Below the pieces are notes generated by a model. That model worked only from the letters and a program-made list of their open reading frames with translations, had not been told where the DNA came from and made no database searches. A stretch of 30,801 nucleotides of DNA from Candidatus Heimdallarchaeota archaeon (GTDB lineage: Archaea > Asgardarchaeota > Heimdallarchaeia > Hodarchaeales > Hodarchaeaceae): contig DXJL01000100.1 in assembly GCA_019057635.1 (NCBI GenBank), forward strand, positions 1 through 30,801. The letters are read 5' to 3'. Position numbers and translations under genes: made by a program. Shown here in pieces: positions 13,919 through 23,628 of the stretch; the stretch's first letter is position 1, and every line of letters begins with the position of its first letter.

Positions 13919-16900
13919 TTAGGCAGAGTCGTTAAAAAAAAGAGTTGTAGGCCGTGGGCCTACATCGAATAAGAGATTCTTGTTTAACTCAATATACCTG
14001 ATCCAAGATTTGGTATATTCTGACAAATCAGCGGAGTACTTATCAGAGAGTTGGTTTATTATTTGAAGATATCTGAGGACCCATCCTTTTGACAGTGTAA
14101 GCTCCAATGTTTTATTATTACAAAATGGACACTTGTCTGATAACGGAACTCTCCTATAAGTTGTTTTACATAATTTACATCTGACAGGTTGTTGAAAAAA
14201 ACGTGAAATAGACAATGTTATCTTAATTAAAAAATCATTGATCAATAAATTATCAACATATTTTCCTTCCTCTACTCCTCGAATACTTTGCAGGCTCTCA
14301 AGAGCGATATTTATCCGATCCACAATTTTTTTCTCAATAAATTTATTCTCTATTGAAAAAATGGATATATCATTGGAAGTCTGAACTGCTAACTCTGGTG
14401 ATGTAAGTAAGGAAATTTCATAGGATAATAAGTTGATTTGTTCTGGATTATTTGGTATTTCCTGATAAAATGTACGATTCATTACCGAAATATTGTGTTT
14501 AGAGTAATCTAAAAGATCTACCCAGCTATCTACTAAATTGATAACCGAAGGTACATCTAAGGCTCCTCCATGAGATGCAGGTATAAATTCACTAGAGAAG
14601 TTGAGTAGAACATCCAGTAGTAGCGTGATTGAATCAGTAGCTCCATTACAAGATCGAGATTTAAGAAGGTGCCAAAGAGGATGAGCAAATAGCACATTAT
14701 TTTTTGAGTATCCAATTATACGTCCTATAACACCGACTTGTGAGGTTGGGGAGATACCCACAACCAATAATCCAATCACATTTTCATAGGATTGTAATCG
14801 ATAATAAGGAGAAGAATTATACTGAAACGATAATTCATCGTCTATAAACTTACTTTGCGCAAATACGAATTTTGCCCCCTCTTTATTAATGATTATATCA
14901 TAAGGAAAGATTTCGATTAATTGTTCCTCATCCGTTAGATCTTCACCATAGATGTCATGAGAATAACCAAGTCTTTGAATTTCGTCTAAAGAGGTACCTA
15001 TCTCATTAGGTGTAAAAGTCCTTATTGGACTATTTGTATAGCTAAATCTCGTGGTACCATCTTTAAATACAAATAACCCATGTTTAGCTCTCAATATTCC
15101 TTTTATTAAATTCTCTGGAATTCCATAGGTATTATCTAGGTATGAAATCCCCTTAACCTTTTTAACTTCAGGAGACCCTGCTTTTTTTATTCCAGAATTA
15201 AACATTCCGTTTATATTAAGCATTTTAGGTTTCGTAGGATATGCTCTTTTCTCACACTGACTACAGATTGAATTATCAGAAGTATGTCCATCACGACATC
15301 TATATTTTAGTTCAGTTTTTTGTTTACACTCGGGGCAATACACTTTGAAGGAATAAATTTTACAGGAAACACAATAACGATCAGCTACACGTATTTCAAT
15401 ACTCGTATCTTGTGGCACCTTAAAGAAATCCTTTTGGGGGCCTCCATGTTTACCTAAAGGAAATAAGCTGTGGTGTGGGGGATTGGTGAATCTTGTCTCT
15501 GCTTTTTCTATTCTGATGAGTTTAAAACCTATCCTTCTGTAACATAACGAGCGAACAGGTATTTTGAGCATTTCTTGACAAAGAAATTCTACAGTTAAAT
15601 CTTCCACATCTTCCTCCAAAATCTCCATCATTTTAGAGAATTCCTGCTTAAATATTGTAAAGAAAGGATTAAGAATCTCAGAATGGATTTTTTCCTCAAT
15701 GATTTCAAATGAGGCGCCTAATTGTTTAATTATTCTTAAAATTTCATCATCTACATGAAGAGAAGTATCAGGATTTGCATTTAATTTTTGTAACAATAGA
15801 ATAAAATCACTTATTGCAATCTCGTTCCAATTAAGTGAAAATTTCGGGTGGAGTGGGATATTGAATGCTTTTGATAATAAAATGGCTAAATCCCAAGTCG
15901 GATAGTAGTTTAGAGGTTCATGGAGCATCTGATTCAATACCCCTTCAGAGAGATTTCCCGACTTTAAGACTTCAGCAATATTAACTTCTTTTGTGGCAAT
16001 TGCACTATTAATTTCCCGATTCCACCATTCTTCCGTCCATGCAGAGAATATAATAGGTGTAGATATTGGGATATCTGAAGTAGACATTAATATATCTCCC
16101 ATTTCCCAAATTTGTTTTGTAGAAATCTTCATTTTGCGAAGTTCATTTATTGAATTTATTCTCTTTAGCGATCCATCCTCTAGTTCAACAAGTGGACCCA
16201 TTATGGAAGAAACAGGATTTATCGCATAAAATCTATCAGAAAAATCTAATTGAACAGTACATCCAGGTGTTAAAATACCTGTAAGCGCCATTGTGACAGG
16301 ATGAATACCAATAGTGCCAAAACCAGTGGTTCTTGATTCACCATATCTTAGTCTAAATCCACCAGCTCGATTTGATTGGGAAAGGAGAGGTTGAGTACTG
16401 CGAATATCTTCCGTTCCGAATGTTCTATTCTGTTTTGGGCTGATAAATCGTAATTTATCTAACCATCCCCATTCGGGAATGCCAGCTTGTAATTTTTGAA
16501 TTATTATTTGTTGTAAGTCGTGAAGTATTCGTTCTAAGGTAACACAAAGTCCCATTCGTAAGTGATTAGTCAATTTTGGTAAATTTCGATACCTTTGAAC
16601 TTCTATTCTCTCATAAGGCTCACTAGATAATTCTACTCCAATATTTTGTATAAATACTCTTACATGATCTACATTGAACTGAAAAACCCGATCATTCATT
16701 TTGAGGAATATTCCTAATTCTTCTTCATATCGTCCAATTGAATCAGGACTTGAATGAAAGCGGTTTAAATGTAAAATACCCCGAAGATAGTCAGAAATAA
16801 GAATTGTTAGGCCAATTATGGTACCTGGAACATACCGGATAGTATTTGCAAAAAAAAGTGTCAAATAGTTTTGTTTAGGATCAATCCTCACTTTGGGTAC

Positions 16901-17260
16901 ATATTCTTTCGGAACTGAACATTGTCCACGACTTAGAATTACGAATGAACTTTGAATTGCTAATAAAATTAACTGTTCCTTGGATTTTTTTATGAACCTT
17001 CCATTGACAATTTGTTTTGCTACATCAGCCGCAAGGAGTAAAAGATTTTTATTCTGATTAATTTTCTCTGGAAGATAATTTTCTAAACCAGGTATGTTTA
17101 ATATGGCGAGAATATTATCAGTTGATGAAGGTGTAATTATTGATTCAATTGAAGAATATGGGTCATATTTGAGACTTCTCGCCTGATTAGCGAGTTTGAT
17201 CTGCGCTGTTAGAGTTTTTTTTATTTGTTCAACATATTCTTGGAATTCTAATTCAATCAT
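13919..17260 (-). CDS. DNA polymerase D large subunit (DP2/PolC) paralogue, predicted catalytically inactive
   Basis: Collinear DP2 motifs: GGFRLRYG, EEWW, PLHPK, LFPLG..GG, KGILRAK...VFKDGT.R, GRIIGY, AHP, LLNFS, RC..C...YRR.PL...C..C. The catalytic NCDGDED reads SCNGATD at 14633-14653. Confidence 0.92.
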   Translation of the reverse strand: MIELEFQEYVEQIKKTLTAQIKLANQARSLKYDPYSSIESIITPSSTDNILAILNIPGLENYLPEKINQNKNLLLLAADVAKQIVNGRFIKKSKEQLILLAIQSSFVILSRGQCSVPKEYVPKVRIDPKQNYLTLFFANTIRYVPGTIIGLTILISDYLRGILHLNRFHSSPDSIGRYEEELGIFLKMNDRVFQFNVDHVRVFIQNIGVELSSEPYERIEVQRYRNLPKLTNHLRMGLCVTLERILHDLQQIIIQKLQAGIPEWGWLDKLRFISPKQNRTFGTEDIRSTQPLLSQSNRAGGFRLRYGESRTTGFGTIGIHPVTMALTGILTPGCTVQLDFSDRFYAINPVSSIMGPLVELEDGSLKRINSINELRKMKISTKQIWEMGDILMSTSDIPISTPIIFSAWTEEWWNREINSAIATKEVNIAEVLKSGNLSEGVLNQMLHEPLNYYPTWDLAILLSKAFNIPLHPKFSLNWNEIAISDFILLLQKLNANPDTSLHVDDEILRIIKQLGASFEIIEEKIHSEILNPFFTIFKQEFSKMMEILEEDVEDLTVEFLCQEMLKIPVRSLCYRRIGFKLIRIEKAETRFTNPPHHSLFPLGKHGGPQKDFFKVPQDTSIEIRVADRYCVSCKIYSFKVYCPECKQKTELKYRCRDGHTSDNSICSQCEKRAYPTKPKMLNINGMFNSGIKKAGSPEVKKVKGISYLDNTYGIPENLIKGILRAKHGLFVFKDGTTRFSYTNSPIRTFTPNEIGTSLDEIQRLGYSHDIYGEDLTDEEQLIEIFPYDIIINKEGAKFVFAQSKFIDDELSFQYNSSPYYRLQSYENVIGLLVVGISPTSQVGVIGRIIGYSKNNVLFAHPLWHLLKSRSCNGATDSITLLLDVLLNFSSEFIPASHGGALDVPSVINLVDSWVDLLDYSKHNISVMNRTFYQEIPNNPEQINLLSYEISLLTSPELAVQTSNDISIFSIENKFIEKKIVDRINIALESLQSIRGVEEGKYVDNLLINDFLIKITLSISRFFQQPVRCKLCKTTYRRVPLSDKCPFCNNKTLELTLSKGWVLRYLQIINQLSDKYSADLSEYTKSWIRYIELNKNLLFDVGPRPTTLFFNDSA

Positions 17261-17267
17261 TTTTATT

Positions 17268-17984
17268 TCACGAATAAATGCGTACTCCGTTCGGAAAAGT
17301 GACGCTTAAAATCCCAACATTATTTATTGATGATATGCCCTCAAAATAATAGTGACCCGTAGTATTGGAATAGGGAGTTGGAGAGAGTGAAGAACTACCA
17401 TTCAAAACATGAATATTTGCAGCATTGATGAAATCCAGAATTGAATATCGAGACTGTTGAATTATCACCTGATTACTAAATATTTCTACACGACCGACAT
17501 AGGAAACACTAAACTCCTCAATAAGTTTCATAGTTGAATATAGATCACTTATTTCAAGGTTAAAACGTGCTTGAATAGCACTGGTATATACTGATCCTAC
17601 CGAGACATTAGAATCTGGGGTCATTAACGCATTAATTGTAAAAGAACTGGATATAAGTTCTAAGGTAGTTAGAATTAAGCGAGATGAATCAACAGCTTCG
17701 ATTGTTGTCAAAAATGACTCTAGCTCTATTCGAGCAAAAGAAGCATTTAAAGAGGAGGTATTATCAGTGTATCTAGCTAACATCATTTCTAAAAATGACT
17801 GTAATTCTCTCTTAATGTTATTATAAGGTTCACGTAATGTTTCTTCATTGGATGTAATCTGTTGTGTTCCGATATTAAGAACTGTAGCACTTATAGCGAC
17901 AACATATACAGCTATCAGCATTGTTGCGAGTATAAACATCTGTCCTCTTCGTTTATCTCGAATAACTATTTTTAATCCCGTCAT
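17268..17984 (-). CDS. Pilin-like protein with class III signal peptide
   Basis: DKRRG|QMFILATMLIAVYVVAI: basic leader, Gly at -1, hydrophobic N-terminal helix. Confidence 0.8.
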   Translation of the reverse strand: MTGLKIVIRDKRRGQMFILATMLIAVYVVAISATVLNIGTQQITSNEETLREPYNNIKRELQSFLEMMLARYTDNTSSLNASFARIELESFLTTIEAVDSSRLILTTLELISSSFTINALMTPDSNVSVGSVYTSAIQARFNLEISDLYSTMKLIEEFSVSYVGRVEIFSNQVIIQQSRYSILDFINAANIHVLNGSSSLSPTPYSNTTGHYYFEGISSINNVGILSVTFPNGVRIYS

Positions 17985-18503
17985 TTAAATTTTCTCCCAT
18001 AAGTACAGTTCTACTAAATATTGAGATGTGAAATGTCCATATTCTGCAGAGGAAAAGGATCCTACAAAATAATTTGATTGAACCCCATCTCCTCCTTGTT
18101 GTAAGGCAAGAATACTCGCTTGAGAGCCAATTAAGTAAATGTATGTTTCAAGAATCGCTTGTCCCTGAACTTCGCTCATTCGTAAGACAAAGCCTAAATC
18201 GTCTTGTAAACTAAATGTAATAAAATCATTAAGGATATCGAGATGGTAAATATATTCTGAATTATGTTCAAGCTGACCATATAAATAAACGACGGGGCGT
18301 AATAGGTTTGCTTCATCGGCCGTAAGTAAAATGTCAGTTGCAGTATTCTGAAGACTTTCTAAATCAGAATCAGATTTATTAACTTGATCCGCAGCACTAA
18401 TGAGTAGTAATGCTAGAATGAGCATGAGTGAAACTGATACAAGTGTTTCGGCAATTTGTAATTGTCCCCTTCGGGTTTTTTTCCAAAAATTGTTCATTTT
18501 CAT
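17985..18503 (-). CDS. Pilin-like protein with class III signal peptide
   Basis: KKTRRG|QLQIAETLVSVSLMLILALLLI; ATGA overlap with the upstream gene. Confidence 0.8.
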   Translation of the reverse strand: MKMNNFWKKTRRGQLQIAETLVSVSLMLILALLLISAADQVNKSDSDLESLQNTATDILLTADEANLLRPVVYLYGQLEHNSEYIYHLDILNDFITFSLQDDLGFVLRMSEVQGQAILETYIYLIGSQASILALQQGGDGVQSNYFVGSFSSAEYGHFTSQYLVELYLWEKI

Positions 18504-19681
18504 CTACTCCTCCACAGAGTTAACCAGCATCTCATCACTGTACCCCGAATATAAACTGGATAGGATTTAGATAATTTGGTAATTTCTCGTGAGCTCTCAC
18601 TTATTTTACCAAAAACTTGATAAAAACTACCAGACGACAGATCAAAATCTAATATCGCTGGAAAGGTTCCGATTCCGACTTTGAATTGATCATTTACCTT
18701 TACTATACTAAAACAAAATACTAATCCTTCATTAGGAACTTGAATTGTTTCATTCCCTTCAAATAAAGACGGTAGATTAATAGATCGATTCGTGAAACTT
18801 CCTTGAGTATTTTTATAAATGTATGATAGAAAATGGGTTTCTGGGGTCTCCTGTAAATCATGTCTATCAGATACTAGAATGGATGAAGAGTTCAATCCTC
18901 CAATCCAGATAGTAGCGTTAGAATCATGGCCTAACAATACATTTTCATGATTAGAAGGAGGAAGTTTCCATGTTACACCCCAAATGGGTCCTTTCTCCGC
19001 AACCGCTATACTGATATGTCTTCCGAAAGGATCATTCAAATTTGGATTATCATATTCTAGTGATGCTTGACCATTTTCATCTGTATTTTTCGTTCCGTCA
19101 ATGCGGATAAATCCTGTTGTTAAATCGAGAGTGAAAAAATGAACTTGACATTCTTTTAGTGGAAGGTAATTATTCGCGTCTGTGACTTGTGTGGTCGATT
19201 CATAAATCGCTGAACTAACTTCTGTGATAGAGATAGATAATTCAAGATAAGGTTGAAGAGATAGCTGGAAATCCTGTTTTGCATCAAGGCCGAGAATATT
19301 TTTGACTGAAGGATAATCAAACTGCTCAAATCCTGAAATAAGATATGTCGGGAATGTAGTACCCGTAATTATTCTAGAAATCTTGGCCGCGTCTAAATTT
19401 ATTGAAGAAATTGCCTTTGATTGTGCCAATCCAAACGTTTCAGGCAGAGATTGCTGGTATCCCCAAAATTGATTTCCTTCTTCTTGTAGCAAGATTCTTC
19501 CGAAGGTATCTAACTCTTTATAGTTTAAATTATTCCGCATCTGGGAATTCAAGCCAGATTGAACATTAATTACGACTAAGATTAATTGGGATAACATTAA
19601 CATAAATAGAAGTAGAGAAACGATAAAATCGATTGCTCGTACTTGTCCTCTTCTTCGTCTTTTCAAACCTAGGTTGAACAT
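18500..19681 (-). CDS. Large minor pilin/adhesin-like protein with class III signal peptide and inserted Ig-like segment
   Basis: KRRRRG|QVRAIDFIVSLLLF; G...W...P..FGLA...LD..KI pilin-like core; VTDANN..PL....V...TDENGQA Ig-like pattern. Confidence 0.8.
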   Translation of the reverse strand: MFNLGLKRRRRGQVRAIDFIVSLLLFMLMLSQLILVVINVQSGLNSQMRNNLNYKELDTFGRILLQEEGNQFWGYQQSLPETFGLAQSKAISSINLDAAKISRIITGTTFPTYLISGFEQFDYPSVKNILGLDAKQDFQLSLQPYLELSISITEVSSAIYESTTQVTDANNYLPLKECQVHFFTLDLTTGFIRIDGTKNTDENGQASLEYDNPNLNDPFGRHISIAVAEKGPIWGVTWKLPPSNHENVLLGHDSNATIWIGGLNSSSILVSDRHDLQETPETHFLSYIYKNTQGSFTNRSINLPSLFEGNETIQVPNEGLVFCFSIVKVNDQFKVGIGTFPAILDFDLSSGSFYQVFGKISESSREITKLSKSYPVYIRGTVMRCWLTLWRSR

Positions 19682-19724
19682 TTTAACCGCTCAAGATGAA
19701 TAACTACCTTTTTGATATTATCAC

Positions 19725-20180
19725 CTAAATTATTTCTTCGTTTTTAGGTGCTCCTGCATTGGCAACTTCCATTTGTATGGTAATCTCATCCAGTCTGTCT
19801 TTTAATTCTAACATTGTGGTCTCAAGCTCTGTTAATTGTAATCCTTTTTCTAAAAGAGTTGTTGCCTGAGTAATAAGTTCATCAGCTTTTTGAGACTTTT
19901 CGCTGCTCAATATGGATACCAAATCGTTAATTGGTGCAAATTTTCCATTTATTTCAGTGATGGCTTTTTCTACTTCAACGATTTTTTTCTCCAATGGACC
20001 TAGGTCCACTCGGACTGGACCAGACATCGCAGCAGGAGGACCCCCTGCAGGAGTTGTGGATACAGGTGCTCCACCAGTACCCATTGATTGGACAAATAGA
20101 AACTCCATATTTGTTAATTTGTCTTCGAGGGCAGAGATCTTCTCCAATACCTCAATTAGCATTTTTTCTTCTTTACCCAA
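19725..20180 (-). CDS. Cytoplasmic coiled-coil protein with Gly/Pro linker
   Basis: Two heptad blocks split by GTGGAPVSTTPAGGPPAA; no TM segment. TTG at 20180 follows a GAGGT SD (the track start is 20204). Confidence 0.75.
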   Translation of the reverse strand: MGKEEKMLIEVLEKISALEDKLTNMEFLFVQSMGTGGAPVSTTPAGGPPAAMSGPVRVDLGPLEKKIVEVEKAITEINGKFAPINDLVSILSSEKSQKADELITQATTLLEKGLQLTELETTMLELKDRLDEITIQMEVANAGAPKNEEII

Positions 20181-20200
20181 GTCTAATACCTCAATATACA

Positions 20201-21196
20201 TCATAGAAGAATTGTAATCTTAAAGAATAAATAGCATATAACTAGTAGGATGCATGAATGCCGTAGGCCAATTTTAGCATCTCCATCACCCATTTTTCCT
20301 GCAATTAATCCAGCAAAGATTGCTTCAATTACCATTAAATGGAAAAAAACCAGTTGTATTCCTGCTACATTGAAGGGCAATGCTGTGGTTGGATCTTCTT
20401 GACTTTGAACTGCATCAACCATTTGAATAGCTAGAGTTTGGAAGAATGAGTACAAGAGTATTATCATTACAAGTGCAAATACAATGAATGATGCATAAAT
20501 AATCCATGTATATGGTTTCATTGCGCCAAGACGTTCGCGTTTCAATCCTAGAACTTCAGATACATGTTTGTGGGCTGATTCGAATACATCTTCAATGGCA
20601 CCACCCGATCGTTCTGCTTCTAAAATTAATAATGATGTTCTCTTCATGAGAGGAGTATCAGCGGTCACAGTAAGGCTTCGCAAGGTCGCACTAAAAGGTA
20701 TACCCCAGCTAATTTTTGAGGCCATTTTTTTCAATTCTGGTGTTAGCGCTCCATATTGATGCTTCGATGCCTCCAGGATTGCTCTGGGTAAGGGAAGACC
20801 CGTTTTCTGAGCATCTGAAATTTCTCTTAATAAAGATGGAATATGATCATCAATGTCATCACGCCACTTTCGATCTGAGTGATAAGCTAAAGCAGGAATG
20901 AGTAATAAAGCAAGAGCAGTAAAAATAGTTACATCTATTATATCAAAAAATCCTATAATTGGATCTTGAATTATTTCACGAACAGAGTATAGAAATGGGT
21001 CCCGGGGAGGGTTTTCAGTTCCTTCTGCTAACTCTGTTGGAGCTGGAAAATCTATAATATGTGTAAGTGCTGGAATATAAAACAGAGATGCAATTATTAA
21101 AAATAACACGAATAAGACAATTGAAATTATCCAATAGTTTCTTTCTTTCTTAGCAGTTAGTTTTCCCAAGTTTTGGATCCTCCGTTCACATATCAC
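20201..21196 (-). CDS. Type II secretion system F / TadC-FlaJ family membrane platform protein
   Basis: IP.LLREI.DAQ.TG..L..AI, YGAL..EL.K....ISWG, EA.RSGG, QA/EAIFAGLIAGKM..G....GL.H. An alternative TTG start at 21169 follows GGAGG. Confidence 0.92.
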   Translation of the reverse strand: MICERRIQNLGKLTAKKERNYWIISIVLFVLFLIIASLFYIPALTHIIDFPAPTELAEGTENPPRDPFLYSVREIIQDPIIGFFDIIDVTIFTALALLLIPALAYHSDRKWRDDIDDHIPSLLREISDAQKTGLPLPRAILEASKHQYGALTPELKKMASKISWGIPFSATLRSLTVTADTPLMKRTSLLILEAERSGGAIEDVFESAHKHVSEVLGLKRERLGAMKPYTWIIYASFIVFALVMIILLYSFFQTLAIQMVDAVQSQEDPTTALPFNVAGIQLVFFHLMVIEAIFAGLIAGKMGDGDAKIGLRHSCILLVICYLFFKITILL

Positions 21197-22094
21197 GCGA
21201 AGCAGTACTAATTAATAATATCATTATGGTCAATAGAATAGGCATTATAAAGTAGGTCAGTGTTAGCATGAATATACTTCCAATTGTAGTCTCAGGGCTA
21301 ATAACAGCAAGAATGGCTAGAATTACTACAAAAAATAGAGGGGCTACAACTCCGATTATCATAAATATTTCAGCTAAAACTCCTAACTGTTCAATAAACT
21401 CTTTAGTTTCCTCTTCTTTAAGTTTCATGTGAGCTCTTGTTTCCGATGACAAATAGAATGTCAAATCACCACCACTGGTGATTGTAGCAGACATGCCGTC
21501 TAAGAACTTTGAAAATCTTTCAGAAGGCGAACGCTCACTGGCAGTCCTTAAAGCCTTTAAAATATCATAACCAAAAATTTCAATGTCCCTAGTAATTCTT
21601 TTACTTTCTTTTGAAATTTCGGGTGCTACTGATTCCTCACCTGCTAATGAATAGAATAATCGGTCAGGTGGGACTCCAGAACTGGCCATTGCAGAGAGGT
21701 AAGAAGCAGTCGATGTTAAACCCGATTCAATTAAAATCTTACGATCTGCGGCTTTCATTTGCGGCCAGTATAAGAAAGGAAGATATGTTATGACTGAGCA
21801 TATTATTGCACTCAATAAACCTATAAACAGAGCGGTAATCAATAATGTTTCAATTGTAATGGTTGAATCCGTATTCTGGAGTATGATTCCTGCTGATAGA
21901 GTAGTAATTACAAAACTAAGGATACCAACAAGTATAGATGTAACAATGGCACTTCCTAAGTAAGCACGAACTGAAATATCCATACCCGCTTTCTTCAAAG
22001 AAGTATTGAGACGCTCAAATCGCCCTTTTTCAATCCAGGGTTCGATGAATCTTCCGAATCTAAGATACCCTACTCTTCTAATTACTTTACTCAC
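21186..22094 (-). CDS. Type II secretion system F / TadC-FlaJ family membrane platform protein
   Basis: L.KAGM.I....Y, AMASSG.P...F, I.RDIE.FG.DI..AL, SPS..F..FL.G..ATI.SGGDL..YL, LAEI.....V.APLF; GTG start with AGGAG SD. Confidence 0.92.
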   Translation of the reverse strand: MSKVIRRVGYLRFGRFIEPWIEKGRFERLNTSLKKAGMDISVRAYLGSAIVTSILVGILSFVITTLSAGIILQNTDSTITIETLLITALFIGLLSAIICSVITYLPFLYWPQMKAADRKILIESGLTSTASYLSAMASSGVPPDRLFYSLAGEESVAPEISKESKRITRDIEIFGYDILKALRTASERSPSERFSKFLDGMSATITSGGDLTFYLSSETRAHMKLKEEETKEFIEQLGVLAEIFMIIGVVAPLFFVVILAILAVISPETTIGSIFMLTLTYFIMPILLTIMILLISTASRDM

Positions 22095-22119
22095 AGGATT
22101 AAACTCCTTGTTTTTCTGT

Positions 22120-23628
22120 TCAAATAGATTTAAGTTCTCTTTTTGCGCGATCCACAGTTTCTAGTGAATTTTGGTAATAGCTATTAATGACCTCAGATAC
22201 TTGCGTGTAATGAGCAAATTTCTTTTTTACCATCCACCTCAGAATGGTTTTTCTTCTCTCAAGTTCATCATAAACTTGTGACTCAGTTAATCCTTGCGAT
22301 TCCTGAATACCTTCTAGAGCATAGGATCTACCATAGTTGATATAAGCATCTTCACGTGCATTCCACCCAAAAACCTTGTTTGTGATGATCTCAGTTGTAA
22401 CTGGATCGATACCCACGATTTCTGTACATTCAATAACTCTACGAACTTGTTTATCCCCTCTTCTAACCTTACGAAGCACCACCAACAGGTTTAAGGTTTG
22501 GATAAGGGTTCGGGGGATATTCATTGGTTCATTTTCTAATCTTCTAATTGTTCCTGTAACACTATCTCCGTGAATAGTTCCCATTCCAGTATGACCAGTT
22601 GCCATTGCTTGGAAGAGGTTATATGCTTCTGCACCTCGTACTTCTCCTACGAAGAGGTAATCAGGTCTCTGACGCAACGCTGCTCGTAAAAGATCGTACA
22701 TGGAGACTTCTCCACGCCTTGATCCATCAGCTTCCCGTCCACCATAGCCTTCTCTCGCAACAGCGGGAATCCAATTTTCATGTGGTAAATGCAATTCAGC
22801 AGTGTCTTCTATTGATACAATTTTCATACCAGGCCTAATAAACATAGCTAAGCAATTTAACAAAGAGGTTTTCCCTGCAGCAGTACCACCTGCGATAACA
22901 ATTGAACTACGATTTTCTAAAGCGTACCATAAAAAGGCTGCAAGGTCTTCATCTATAGTGTTATAAGTTATCATATCTGTTACAGTTAAAGGATCAGAAC
23001 GGAATTTTCTTATAGTAAATGTGCTACCTCTCTGTGTTACCTCACGACCGTAAGTTAATTGAAGACGACTACCATCAGGTAAAGCAGCATCAAGTAAAGG
23101 TCTGGCTACGCTAATGTGTCTACCCGCACGTTGAGCTAATTTAATTATAAAGGAGTCTAGATCCTCCTCTTTATCAAATTTTATATTTGTTTGAATACTT
23201 TCAAATTTCCTATGCCATACATAGATTGGGATACCTACACCGTCACAGCTAATATCTTCTACAGCATGGTCACGCAATATTGCATCTATCTGACCAAATC
23301 CTACAAAATCGCGCGTTATGTGATAATTAATTTTATCAAACGTTTTTTCGTCCATTTTCAAGCCATAATTTTTTGCAATGCCGATGACCTTTTGACGCAA
23401 ATAGTCTCGAGCCATCTCTGGCGATTTCAATACATTAAAATCAACATCTAATTCTTCTTCAAGCACATTTTTAATCATGTCAAGAATATCTTTCTCTTTA
23501 GTACTTAGAGGTATTTCTACTACTGTATATTTCGTTTGCTTTGTGTCAGGGTCAGTAGCAACTAAAGCATAACTGAAAGGGGGGATTAATGGATAGGTTT
23601 CACGAATCAAACTACTAGAATCGGACAT
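22120..23628 (-). CDS. Type II/IV secretion / type IV pilus assembly ATPase (VirB11/FlaI-like)
   Basis: VEDISCDG, FTIRKF, Walker A GGTAAGKT, Asp box SIEDTAEL..PHENW, ALRQRPDY, Walker B FVGEVRG.EA, His box MATGH...TIH. Confidence 0.96.
   Translation of the reverse strand: MSDSSSLIRETYPLIPPFSYALVATDPDTKQTKYTVVEIPLSTKEKDILDMIKNVLEEELDVDFNVLKSPEMARDYLRQKVIGIAKNYGLKMDEKTFDKINYHITRDFVGFGQIDAILRDHAVEDISCDGVGIPIYVWHRKFESIQTNIKFDKEEDLDSFIIKLAQRAGRHISVARPLLDAALPDGSRLQLTYGREVTQRGSTFTIRKFRSDPLTVTDMITYNTIDEDLAAFLWYALENRSSIVIAGGTAAGKTSLLNCLAMFIRPGMKIVSIEDTAELHLPHENWIPAVAREGYGGREADGSRRGEVSMYDLLRAALRQRPDYLFVGEVRGAEAYNLFQAMATGHTGMGTIHGDSVTGTIRRLENEPMNIPRTLIQTLNLLVVLRKVRRGDKQVRRVIECTEIVGIDPVTTEIITNKVFGWNAREDAYINYGRSYALEGIQESQGLTESQVYDELERRKTILRWMVKKKFAHYTQVSEVINSYYQNSLETVDRAKRELKSI

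Follow-up and report, generated by a model that had tools for sequence, protein, structure and literature searches.

Introduction

What is a complete subunit of a DNA polymerase kept for when the residues that make it a polymerase are gone? The question is raised by a stretch of 30,801 nucleotides [GenBank assembly GCA_019057635.1, contig DXJL01000100.1, positions 1 to 30,801], here called the window, from a Candidatus Heimdallarchaeota archaeon of the order Hodarchaeales, which carries a gene for DP2, the large subunit of PolD, the DNA polymerase of family D. PolD is an essential replicase in most archaea. Eukaryotes have kept it only as a C-terminal domain, fused to family-B polymerases (PolBs), and as the small subunit, in the form of inactive B-subunits, and few known archaea are as closely related to eukaryotes as the Hodarchaeales. 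The DP2 gene described here is single copy, has lost catalytic residues and is under purifying selection in every domain. Probably, the protein is a non-catalytic one that is kept as the partner of the small subunit, DP1, and as a scaffold of the replisome, with PolBs replicating the genome. A complete PolD that appears polymerase-dead, standing beside a Pol-epsilon-like polymerase, offers a living system in which to study the shift from PolD to family-B replication, and also asks what the non-catalytic remainder of PolD is kept for. That question is made testable by the generality of the arrangement, by the strong selection acting on the dead protein and by nuclease motifs of DP1 that appear to be live.

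The core fact, that DP2 is inactive in a Hodarchaeales lineage, is already in print. A Heimdall_B3/LC3-like group without active DP2 is reported by Kazlauskas et al. (2020) [PMC7544198], and an earlier reading of the window made from its letters alone (the sequence-only reading), which knew of no described inactive DP2 family, was mistaken on this point. According to that paper the group, which is mentioned in passing and comprises two metagenome-assembled genomes (MAGs), co-occurs with B10 PolBs bearing a Zn-binding C-terminus, and the B3 DP1 keeps all five motifs and may still be active; other Heimdallarchaea, e.g. AB125, are said to have both DP2 and DP1 in active form. The window DP2 is of the same lineage. 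Its identity to the DP2 of Heimdallarchaeota archaeon B3_Heim is 96%, and to that of each of two Hodarchaeota MAGs 71-72%, and the inactive DP2, the co-occurrence with B10 and the five DP1 motifs are all reproduced here. Added are the order-wide scope (23 genomes of the order), the single copy, also in a closed genome, the selection, the stepwise loss, the fold and DP1 predictions and the replacement of the C-terminal tail. A literature search covering main texts found no fuller account of the inactive Hodarchaeales DP2 than PMC7544198. A 2025 survey of Asgard replisomes [PMC12680538] treats the Hodarchaeal DP1 and Pol-epsilon-like PolB, and its main text never uses 'inactiv' or 'catalytically'.

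Loss of catalytic residues in DP2

The DP2 gene is a single open frame of 1113 codons with an ATG start and zero internal stops. The three DP2 Pfam domains, PF03833, PF24844 and PF24846, are collinear and all far above their cut-offs, which together with the open reading frame (ORF) confirms the earlier description of an intact 1113 aa product collinear with DP2. Solved DP2 chains of Pyrococcus abyssi and Thermococcus kodakarensis match the window protein over its full length in HMMER searches, the best being 6hms_B (E 4e-144). Scores nevertheless fall under all of the NCBIfam polC equivalog cut-offs, with 718.9 against 1269 for NF003103 and 616.8 against 702.15 for TIGR00354; in the search of the whole genome TIGR00354 scored 615.4, again below its cut-off.

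Opposite D956 and D958 of the P. abyssi chain, described as two invariant Asp residues critical for polymerase activity (Sauguet et al. 2016) [PMC4996933], the HMMER alignment places N872 and A874. The replacement of both catalytic Asp residues, as first proposed, is thereby borne out. The catalytic string had also been transcribed correctly, but its 13 residues occupy 14633-14671, one codon more than the 14633-14668 originally assigned to it. The strings quoted for the six motif replacements, that of the catalytic loop included, were all found as written (Table 1). Aligned ligands of all three zinc modules are in place, the first ligand pair of Zn-II being Cys/His and not CxxC.

The change in the catalytic loop is real and not an assembly error, because contigs from two other public sequencing runs, belonging to two other studies, span 14633-14671 with all of their differences outside it, and because an independent MAG (G002, 96% aa identity) has an identical catalytic string. 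Among the sequencing runs listed as containing the gene none is of RNA, a result that is neutral as to expression.

Throughout the window's genus the first Asp (position of D956) is missing, with Asn in 20 and Ser in 1 of the 21 sequences. The second (position of D958) is still Asp in 15/21 and is replaced by Ala, Val or Asn in the other 6: Ala or Val in the five sequences of the window's own subclade (G000, which is the window's genome, G002, G004, G018 and G020) and Asn in G011. The third acidic residue of the loop is Asp in 21/21. In the sister family, represented by two genomes, the loop reads TANGDID (G023) and NVFLGAV (G022). Among 17 relatives from other families of the class, all 15 loops recovered have [CA]DGDED, many of them after an insertion that follows the Asn; of the two without a recovered loop, G036 gave only N-terminal pieces and G039 no match. 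The loss is order-wide and stepwise, the first Asp probably having gone in the ancestor of the order and the second later in the window's subclade. The loop of G011 (L018), CSGNID, is a separate case, in which neither catalytic Asp is left and the loss took place independently of that subclade.

A HMMER scan of 1.84 billion representative proteins returned 790 matches at E ≤ 0.001, and the loop was scored in the best 150 of these and in the query, 4 of which were unscorable. Both Asp residues are kept in 135 of the 147 scorable sequences and 3 have D..E, leaving 9 in which the first Asp is absent. Seven of the 9, including the query, are in the window's group, and the other two are P0078 (CGGEVD) and P0151 (KASDPA). 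The latter, a DP2 homologue of 1117 aa, lies on a long branch, and a search for its locus in a genome found none.

Erosion extends beyond the loop. GPIRxAGGT, the barrel-1 ERPGK, RMGRPEK and the His of GLAPHTS are degraded genus-wide, and the site that reads NTIRYVPGT in the window is eroded in all 18 full-length genus sequences of that alignment. Eight canonical DP2 have 244 invariant columns in common; of these, 98 survive in 17/17 full-length genus proteins and 69 have disappeared from every one. The window DP2 shares 28% identity with canonical DP2 of its own class, against 37-39% between canonical DP2 of Heimdallarchaeia and of Woesearchaeota/Pacearchaeota, and judged by these identities the protein has evolved fast.

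Could DP2 still polymerize DNA through a metal site remodelled around Asn872, Asp876 and other acidic residues? The loop is strongly conserved in the genus as AHPxWHxLKTRNCNGD[IV]DS, its third acidic residue is invariant there, and 13 columns have become acidic in genus DP2. However, compensating acidic residues were looked for at the active site and, by sequence position, none of the 13 gains falls within loop 860-880. The window DP2 also lacks both of the Asp residues held to be critical in P. abyssi, the barrel-1 ERPGK and RMGRPEK motifs are lost as well, and one sister-family genome has no acidic residue in the loop at all. A remodelled polymerase site is accordingly judged highly improbable.

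DP2 is present as a single copy

The sequence-only reading took the gene for a paralogue, which implies an extra, diverged DP2 in a genome that also has a canonical, catalytic polC. Searches of the window's genome (3.19 Mb, 214 contigs, 91.6% complete) gave one DP2 match with PF24846 and one with TIGR00354. In the order, 23/24 genomes have exactly one DP2 catalytic domain (PF24846), and all 23 are of the inactive type without the first Asp; the 24th (G007), which gave no match, is a single 1.4-Mb contig that is 71% complete. In G010, a closed genome consisting of one contig (4.9 Mb, 96% complete), the only DP2 is likewise inactive. Where the protein search found two matches, in each of two genomes, they are the halves of one gene split over contig ends. 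No second, canonical DP2 was found with PF24846 and TIGR00354 in the window's genome or with PF24846 in the 24 genomes of the order. A gene missing from an assembly of 214 contigs is possible in principle, but with a sole, inactive DP2 in each of 23 genomes, one of them closed, the paralogue is extremely improbable and was rejected. The absence of a canonical polC might equally have spoken against a dead enzyme. The PolBs of the genome, with their intact motifs, keep that idea alive, and it is only the second copy that fails.

A tree (LG+G4) was built from 46 rows, made up of 13/19 Hodarchaeales rows, 7 canonical loci, 23/69 intein-free representatives (every third) and 3 added sequences. The Hodarchaeales DP2 form a group whose long branch is separate from every canonical DP2, with the two sister-family rows joining as long branches, and a quick tree of this kind cannot show orthology or a donor.

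Selection, frame integrity and predicted fold

Nei-Gojobori ratios of nonsynonymous to synonymous substitution (dN/dS) are 0.08-0.14 for genus pairs at a dS of 0.35-1.76 and 0.27 for the closest pair (dS 0.06). Calculated by domain for pairs with finite dS ≥ 0.28, they are 0.05-0.18, and this includes the catalytic domain and the dead loop region of barrel 2. In 16/20 other genus genomes with a match the gene is a single full-length frame of 1107-1130 aa without an internal stop; contig ends cut it in G005, G017 and G020. The DP2 gene is kept under purifying selection and is not decaying.

A pseudogene in slow decay, which has not yet acquired stops, would suit the 28% identity to canonical DP2 of the same class, lower than that between Heimdallarchaeia and Woesearchaeota/Pacearchaeota, as well as an in-frame TGA in one genome (G015). 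It is barely credible given dN/dS of about 0.1 in all domains, well below 1, open frames in 16/20 other genus genomes across identities to the window protein down to 45-53%, and a confident fold model. The earlier proposal that an intact gene under selection, stripped of its catalytic residues, has been retained for a non-catalytic role fits these results.

The AlphaFold2 model of the window DP2, made from a 49-row alignment, has a mean predicted local distance difference test score (pLDDT) of 89 and a predicted template modelling score (pTM) of 0.88. The superposition that the first description had called for, on P. abyssi DP2 chains taken from PolD complexes (8ppt_B, 6t8h_B, 9f29_B), gave Foldseek query TM-scores (TMq) of 0.85-0.86, and the two-barrel PolD fold is predicted to be retained.

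One end of the protein has been exchanged. A C-terminal tail of the QxxLxx[FW]F type, which we take to be the PCNA-interacting tail, is present in 7/8 canonical DP2 aligned and is replaced in 17/17 genus proteins by LLF[DE]xGPRPT.L[IFV]. The new tail, conserved in the genus, may be a binding peptide for some partner.

These features bear on the proposal that DP2 is neofunctionalized and not a passive scaffold, its remodelled cleft having gained a new activity or ligand such as nucleic-acid binding or regulation of the DP1 nuclease. Residues 830-900 around the dead loop are strongly constrained (dN/dS 0.05-0.16), an unrelated Nitrososphaerota lineage has a very similar DCGGD[VIA]DS, though it groups with a canonical DP2 in the tree, and the conserved tail is new. 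Conservation of the loop can, however, be structural, and a new activity is considered quite unlikely.

DP1, the predicted partner

The window's genome has a single DP1 gene, for a protein of 517 aa (best solved match 5ihe_A, E 3.6e-47), and DP1 is single copy in 19/21 other genus genomes. Each of the 19 full-length sequences from the genus, that of the window's genome included, retains the metallophosphoesterase motifs (DxH, GDxx[DE]G, GEHD, H, GHxH), except for one GERD. Motif III is GEHD and not the canonical GNHD in 18/19 genus sequences (L072-L090), L088 having the GERD. By alignment, this shift is a lineage-wide change at a metal-ligand position.

The complex of DP1 (410 aa) with the last 185 aa of DP2 was predicted with each chain input as an alignment. 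It scored 0.88, a level reached by 58/80 solved complexes against 2/110 mismatched pairs, and none of the 3 controls rose above 0.00. Agreement of contacts between runs is 78% or more, and the partner pLDDT is 63 or more. The DP2 C-terminal domain is thus predicted to bind DP1.

Family-B polymerases of the genome

Four family-B polymerase homologues are encoded by the window's genome (Table 1). To judge by its motif C, the 749 aa homologue is probably another inactivated polymerase of the same genome. The 1474 aa PolB, of group B10, has its best solved relatives in the catalytic subunits of Pol epsilon (E 1e-58, against 1e-14 for archaeal PolBs), and its C-terminal Zn ribbon follows a long linker of low complexity. 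B10 is found in 22/23 other genomes of the order and 0/17 relatives from the class (E ≤ 1e-20). Its distribution matches that of the dead DP2, and the match, being one phylogenetic event, is a coincidence in time and not a statistical association. The B10 and DP2 genes are on different contigs. In G003, G008, G018, G020 and G021 the B10 frames are 1901-2021 aa and the match to the 1474 aa protein is split near residue 935 or 981, implying insertions of about 450-550 aa that are probably inteins.

A more specific proposal is that the Pol epsilon holoenzyme had a split forerunner in archaea, of which the dead DP2 with DP1 is the non-catalytic half that tethers the helicase, with B10 copying the leading strand. 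Among archaeal proteins B10 would be the nearest to the active half of Pol epsilon, and the dead PolD would anchor the enzyme to CMG/GINS and primase, as the dead C-terminal half of Pol epsilon does with Dpb2. The data are compatible with this because dead DP2 (23/23 genomes with a match) and B10 co-occur order-wide, and because DP2 is predicted still to bind DP1 and a Zn ribbon forms the end of B10. If true, the Hodarchaeales would preserve an intermediate stage in the replacement of PolD by PolB from which the eukaryotic replisome took its shape. Against it, the B10 C-terminus and a Hodarchaeal DP1 are reported to give no yeast two-hybrid interaction (2025) [PMC12680538], and the co-occurrence on which it draws is a single phylogenetic event; we regard a split forerunner as unlikely.

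A probable non-catalytic role for DP2

The retention of DP2 as a non-catalytic DP1 partner and scaffold can be put together as follows. DP2 would be a single-copy, vertically kept PolD subunit of the Hodarchaeales (Heimdallarchaeia, Asgard archaea) that in the order's ancestor lost its first catalytic Asp together with many of its active-site motifs, a loss that coincides on the tree with the presence of the Pol-epsilon-like B10 polymerase, and in the window's subclade its second Asp at a later time. DNA synthesis would then fall to the family-B polymerases. The PolD fold, the three zinc modules and the C-terminal DP1-binding domain appear to have been retained under purifying selection. The DP1-DP2 complex most likely still forms, and DP1 may be a working 3'-5' nuclease that needs DP2. 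In canonical PolD the two subunits connect primase to the CMG-like helicase [PMC8096248, PMC9023282], and a Heimdallarchaeal PriL is reported to interact with DP2's C-terminal domain [PMC12680538]; we infer that DP1-DP2 could likewise be a structural hub of the Hodarchaeales replisome, DP2 serving as scaffold and nuclease partner.

Several observations weigh against this account. The tree sets the Hodarchaeales DP2 on its long branch and not beside DP2 of other Heimdallarchaeia, and orthology is drawn from single-copy status, not from topology. In most of the order the loop still has its second and third acidic residues, and residual or altered metal binding may occur there. The DP2 gene of G015 (L008) has an in-frame TGA at a Gly codon, at about residue 236 of the window protein (LRM*MC), with the rest of its 1107-codon frame intact; recoding, a nonsense mutation of recent date or a sequencing error in this one-contig assembly might explain it. 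Neither the protein query nor PF04042 at E ≤ 0.01 found DP1 in the sister-family genomes G022 (85% complete) and G023 (80%), and the DP1 partnership may not hold order-wide. DP1-DP2 is, moreover, a textbook pair with solved PolD complexes, and the complex score of 0.88 may reflect likeness or memory and not persisting binding. Finally, the replacement of the PCNA-type tail weakens a simple picture in which the same replisome contacts are kept.

Comparison with other systems

With canonical DP2 (P. abyssi) [PDB 5ijl, 6hms, 6t8h, 8ppt] the window DP2 shares the domain order, the predicted fold, the three Zn modules and the presence of a DP1 gene. It differs in the absence of D956/D958, the eroded active-site motifs, the NCBIfam scores below cut-off and the tail.

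Pol epsilon has an inactive C-terminal polymerase module and inactivated B-subunits derived from DP1 [PMC7544198, PMC4996933]. Like that module, the window DP2 appears to have lost catalysis and to have been kept in the replication apparatus beside an active polymerase of the Pol epsilon type. However, the Pol epsilon module has a family-B fold and is fused to the active half, whereas DP2 is a separately encoded, two-barrel family-D protein, and the eukaryotic B-subunits are inactivated, whereas the DP1 partner of the window DP2 still has its nuclease motifs.

A Nitrososphaeria group is also said to lack an active DP2 [PMC7544198]. Full-length DP2 with DCGGD[VIA]DS were found at four loci (L092-L095, representative P0078) of MAGs titled Nitrososphaerota/Conexivisphaerales. 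In these the first catalytic Asp has become Gly and the next Glu is Val, Ile or Ala, a pattern that resembles the NGD[IV]DS of the Hodarchaeales. They are possibly the Nitrososphaeria group of that paper, and the pattern is possibly convergent with that of the Hodarchaeales; by their titles they belong to a different phylum, and P0078 groups with a canonical DP2 in the tree.

DP2 is reported to have been lost outright in Baldrarchaeia and Aenigmatarchaeota [PMC12680538] and in Crenarchaeota [PMC7544198]. These archaea, as would the Hodarchaeales, replicate without PolD catalysis and leave synthesis to PolBs. They have, however, deleted the gene, some fusing its C-terminal domain to a PolB, while the Hodarchaeales keep the entire protein of about 1100 aa.

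Features of the DP2 gene and its neighbourhood

Features of the gene, of its neighbourhood and of the PolB homologues are collected in Table 1.

Table 1. Features of the DP2 gene (residue numbers of the 1113 aa protein, positions in the window), the adjacent cluster and the family-B polymerase homologues of the genome.
Feature	Position	Strand	Basis or remark
Intact DP2 (PolD large subunit) gene	13919..17260	-	genome's only DP2
DP2 N-terminal domain PF03833, residues 8-270	16451..17239	-	Pfam, E 1.9e-36
NTIRYVPGT, residues 139-147, replaces canonical GPIRxAGGT	16820..16846	-	alignment
DP2 central domain PF24844, residues 284-659, contains first double-psi beta-barrel	15284..16411	-	Pfam, E 1.5e-61
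GCTVQLDFSDR, residues 333-343, replaces barrel-1 canonical GTxxxxERPGK	16232..16264	-	alignment
KLIRIEK, residues 580-586, replaces canonical RMGRPEK	15503..15523	-	alignment
Zn-I (C630, C633, C642, C645) and Zn-II (C655, H659, C666, C669), kept	15248..15376	-	ligand alignment
DP2 catalytic domain PF24846, residues 699-930, second double-psi beta-barrel	14471..15166	-	Pfam
GISPTSQVG, residues 835-843, replaces canonical GLAPHTSxG	14732..14758	-	alignment
Catalytic loop HLLKSRSCNGATD, residues 864-876	14633..14671	-	N872/A874 at P. abyssi D956/D958; D876 kept
C-terminal 185 residues (929-1113) modelled with DP1; predicted contacts about 1011-1058 and 1080-1098	13922..14476	-	complex prediction
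KITLSIS, residues 1013-1019, replaces canonical DxxGNLR	14204..14224	-	alignment
Zn-III (C1028, C1031, C1044, C1047) and conserved YRRVPL string, kept	14114..14182	-	alignment
C-terminal tail LLFDVGPRPTTLFFNDSA, conserved in genus	13922..13975	-	replaces QxxLxx[FW]F-type tail
Type-IV-pilus-like cluster, closed by the 238 aa ORF	17268..23628	-	T2SSE ATPase at 22120..23628; two T2SSF genes
Two PolBs, about 850-870 aa			motif C YGDTDS; motifs intact
PolB homologue, 749 aa	G000:C91:12716-14965	+	motif C IVDS, not DTDS
PolB, 1474 aa (group B10)			motif C ELDTDG, motifs intact; C-terminal CxxC...CxxC

No replication operon was found in the window, which is an ordinary chromosomal stretch. DP2 starts 7 nt after the 238 aa ORF, which has a weak match to DUF7261 and is conserved upstream of DP2 in the genus loci. 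The pilus-like cluster that this ORF closes also contains several small ORFs without family matches; such surroundings are unusual for a gene of replication, and the genus loci conserve them. Downstream of DP2 are a CBS-domain gene and an NFACT gene, and elsewhere the window carries genes for RadA, ribosomal protein L15e and an Obg-like GTPase.

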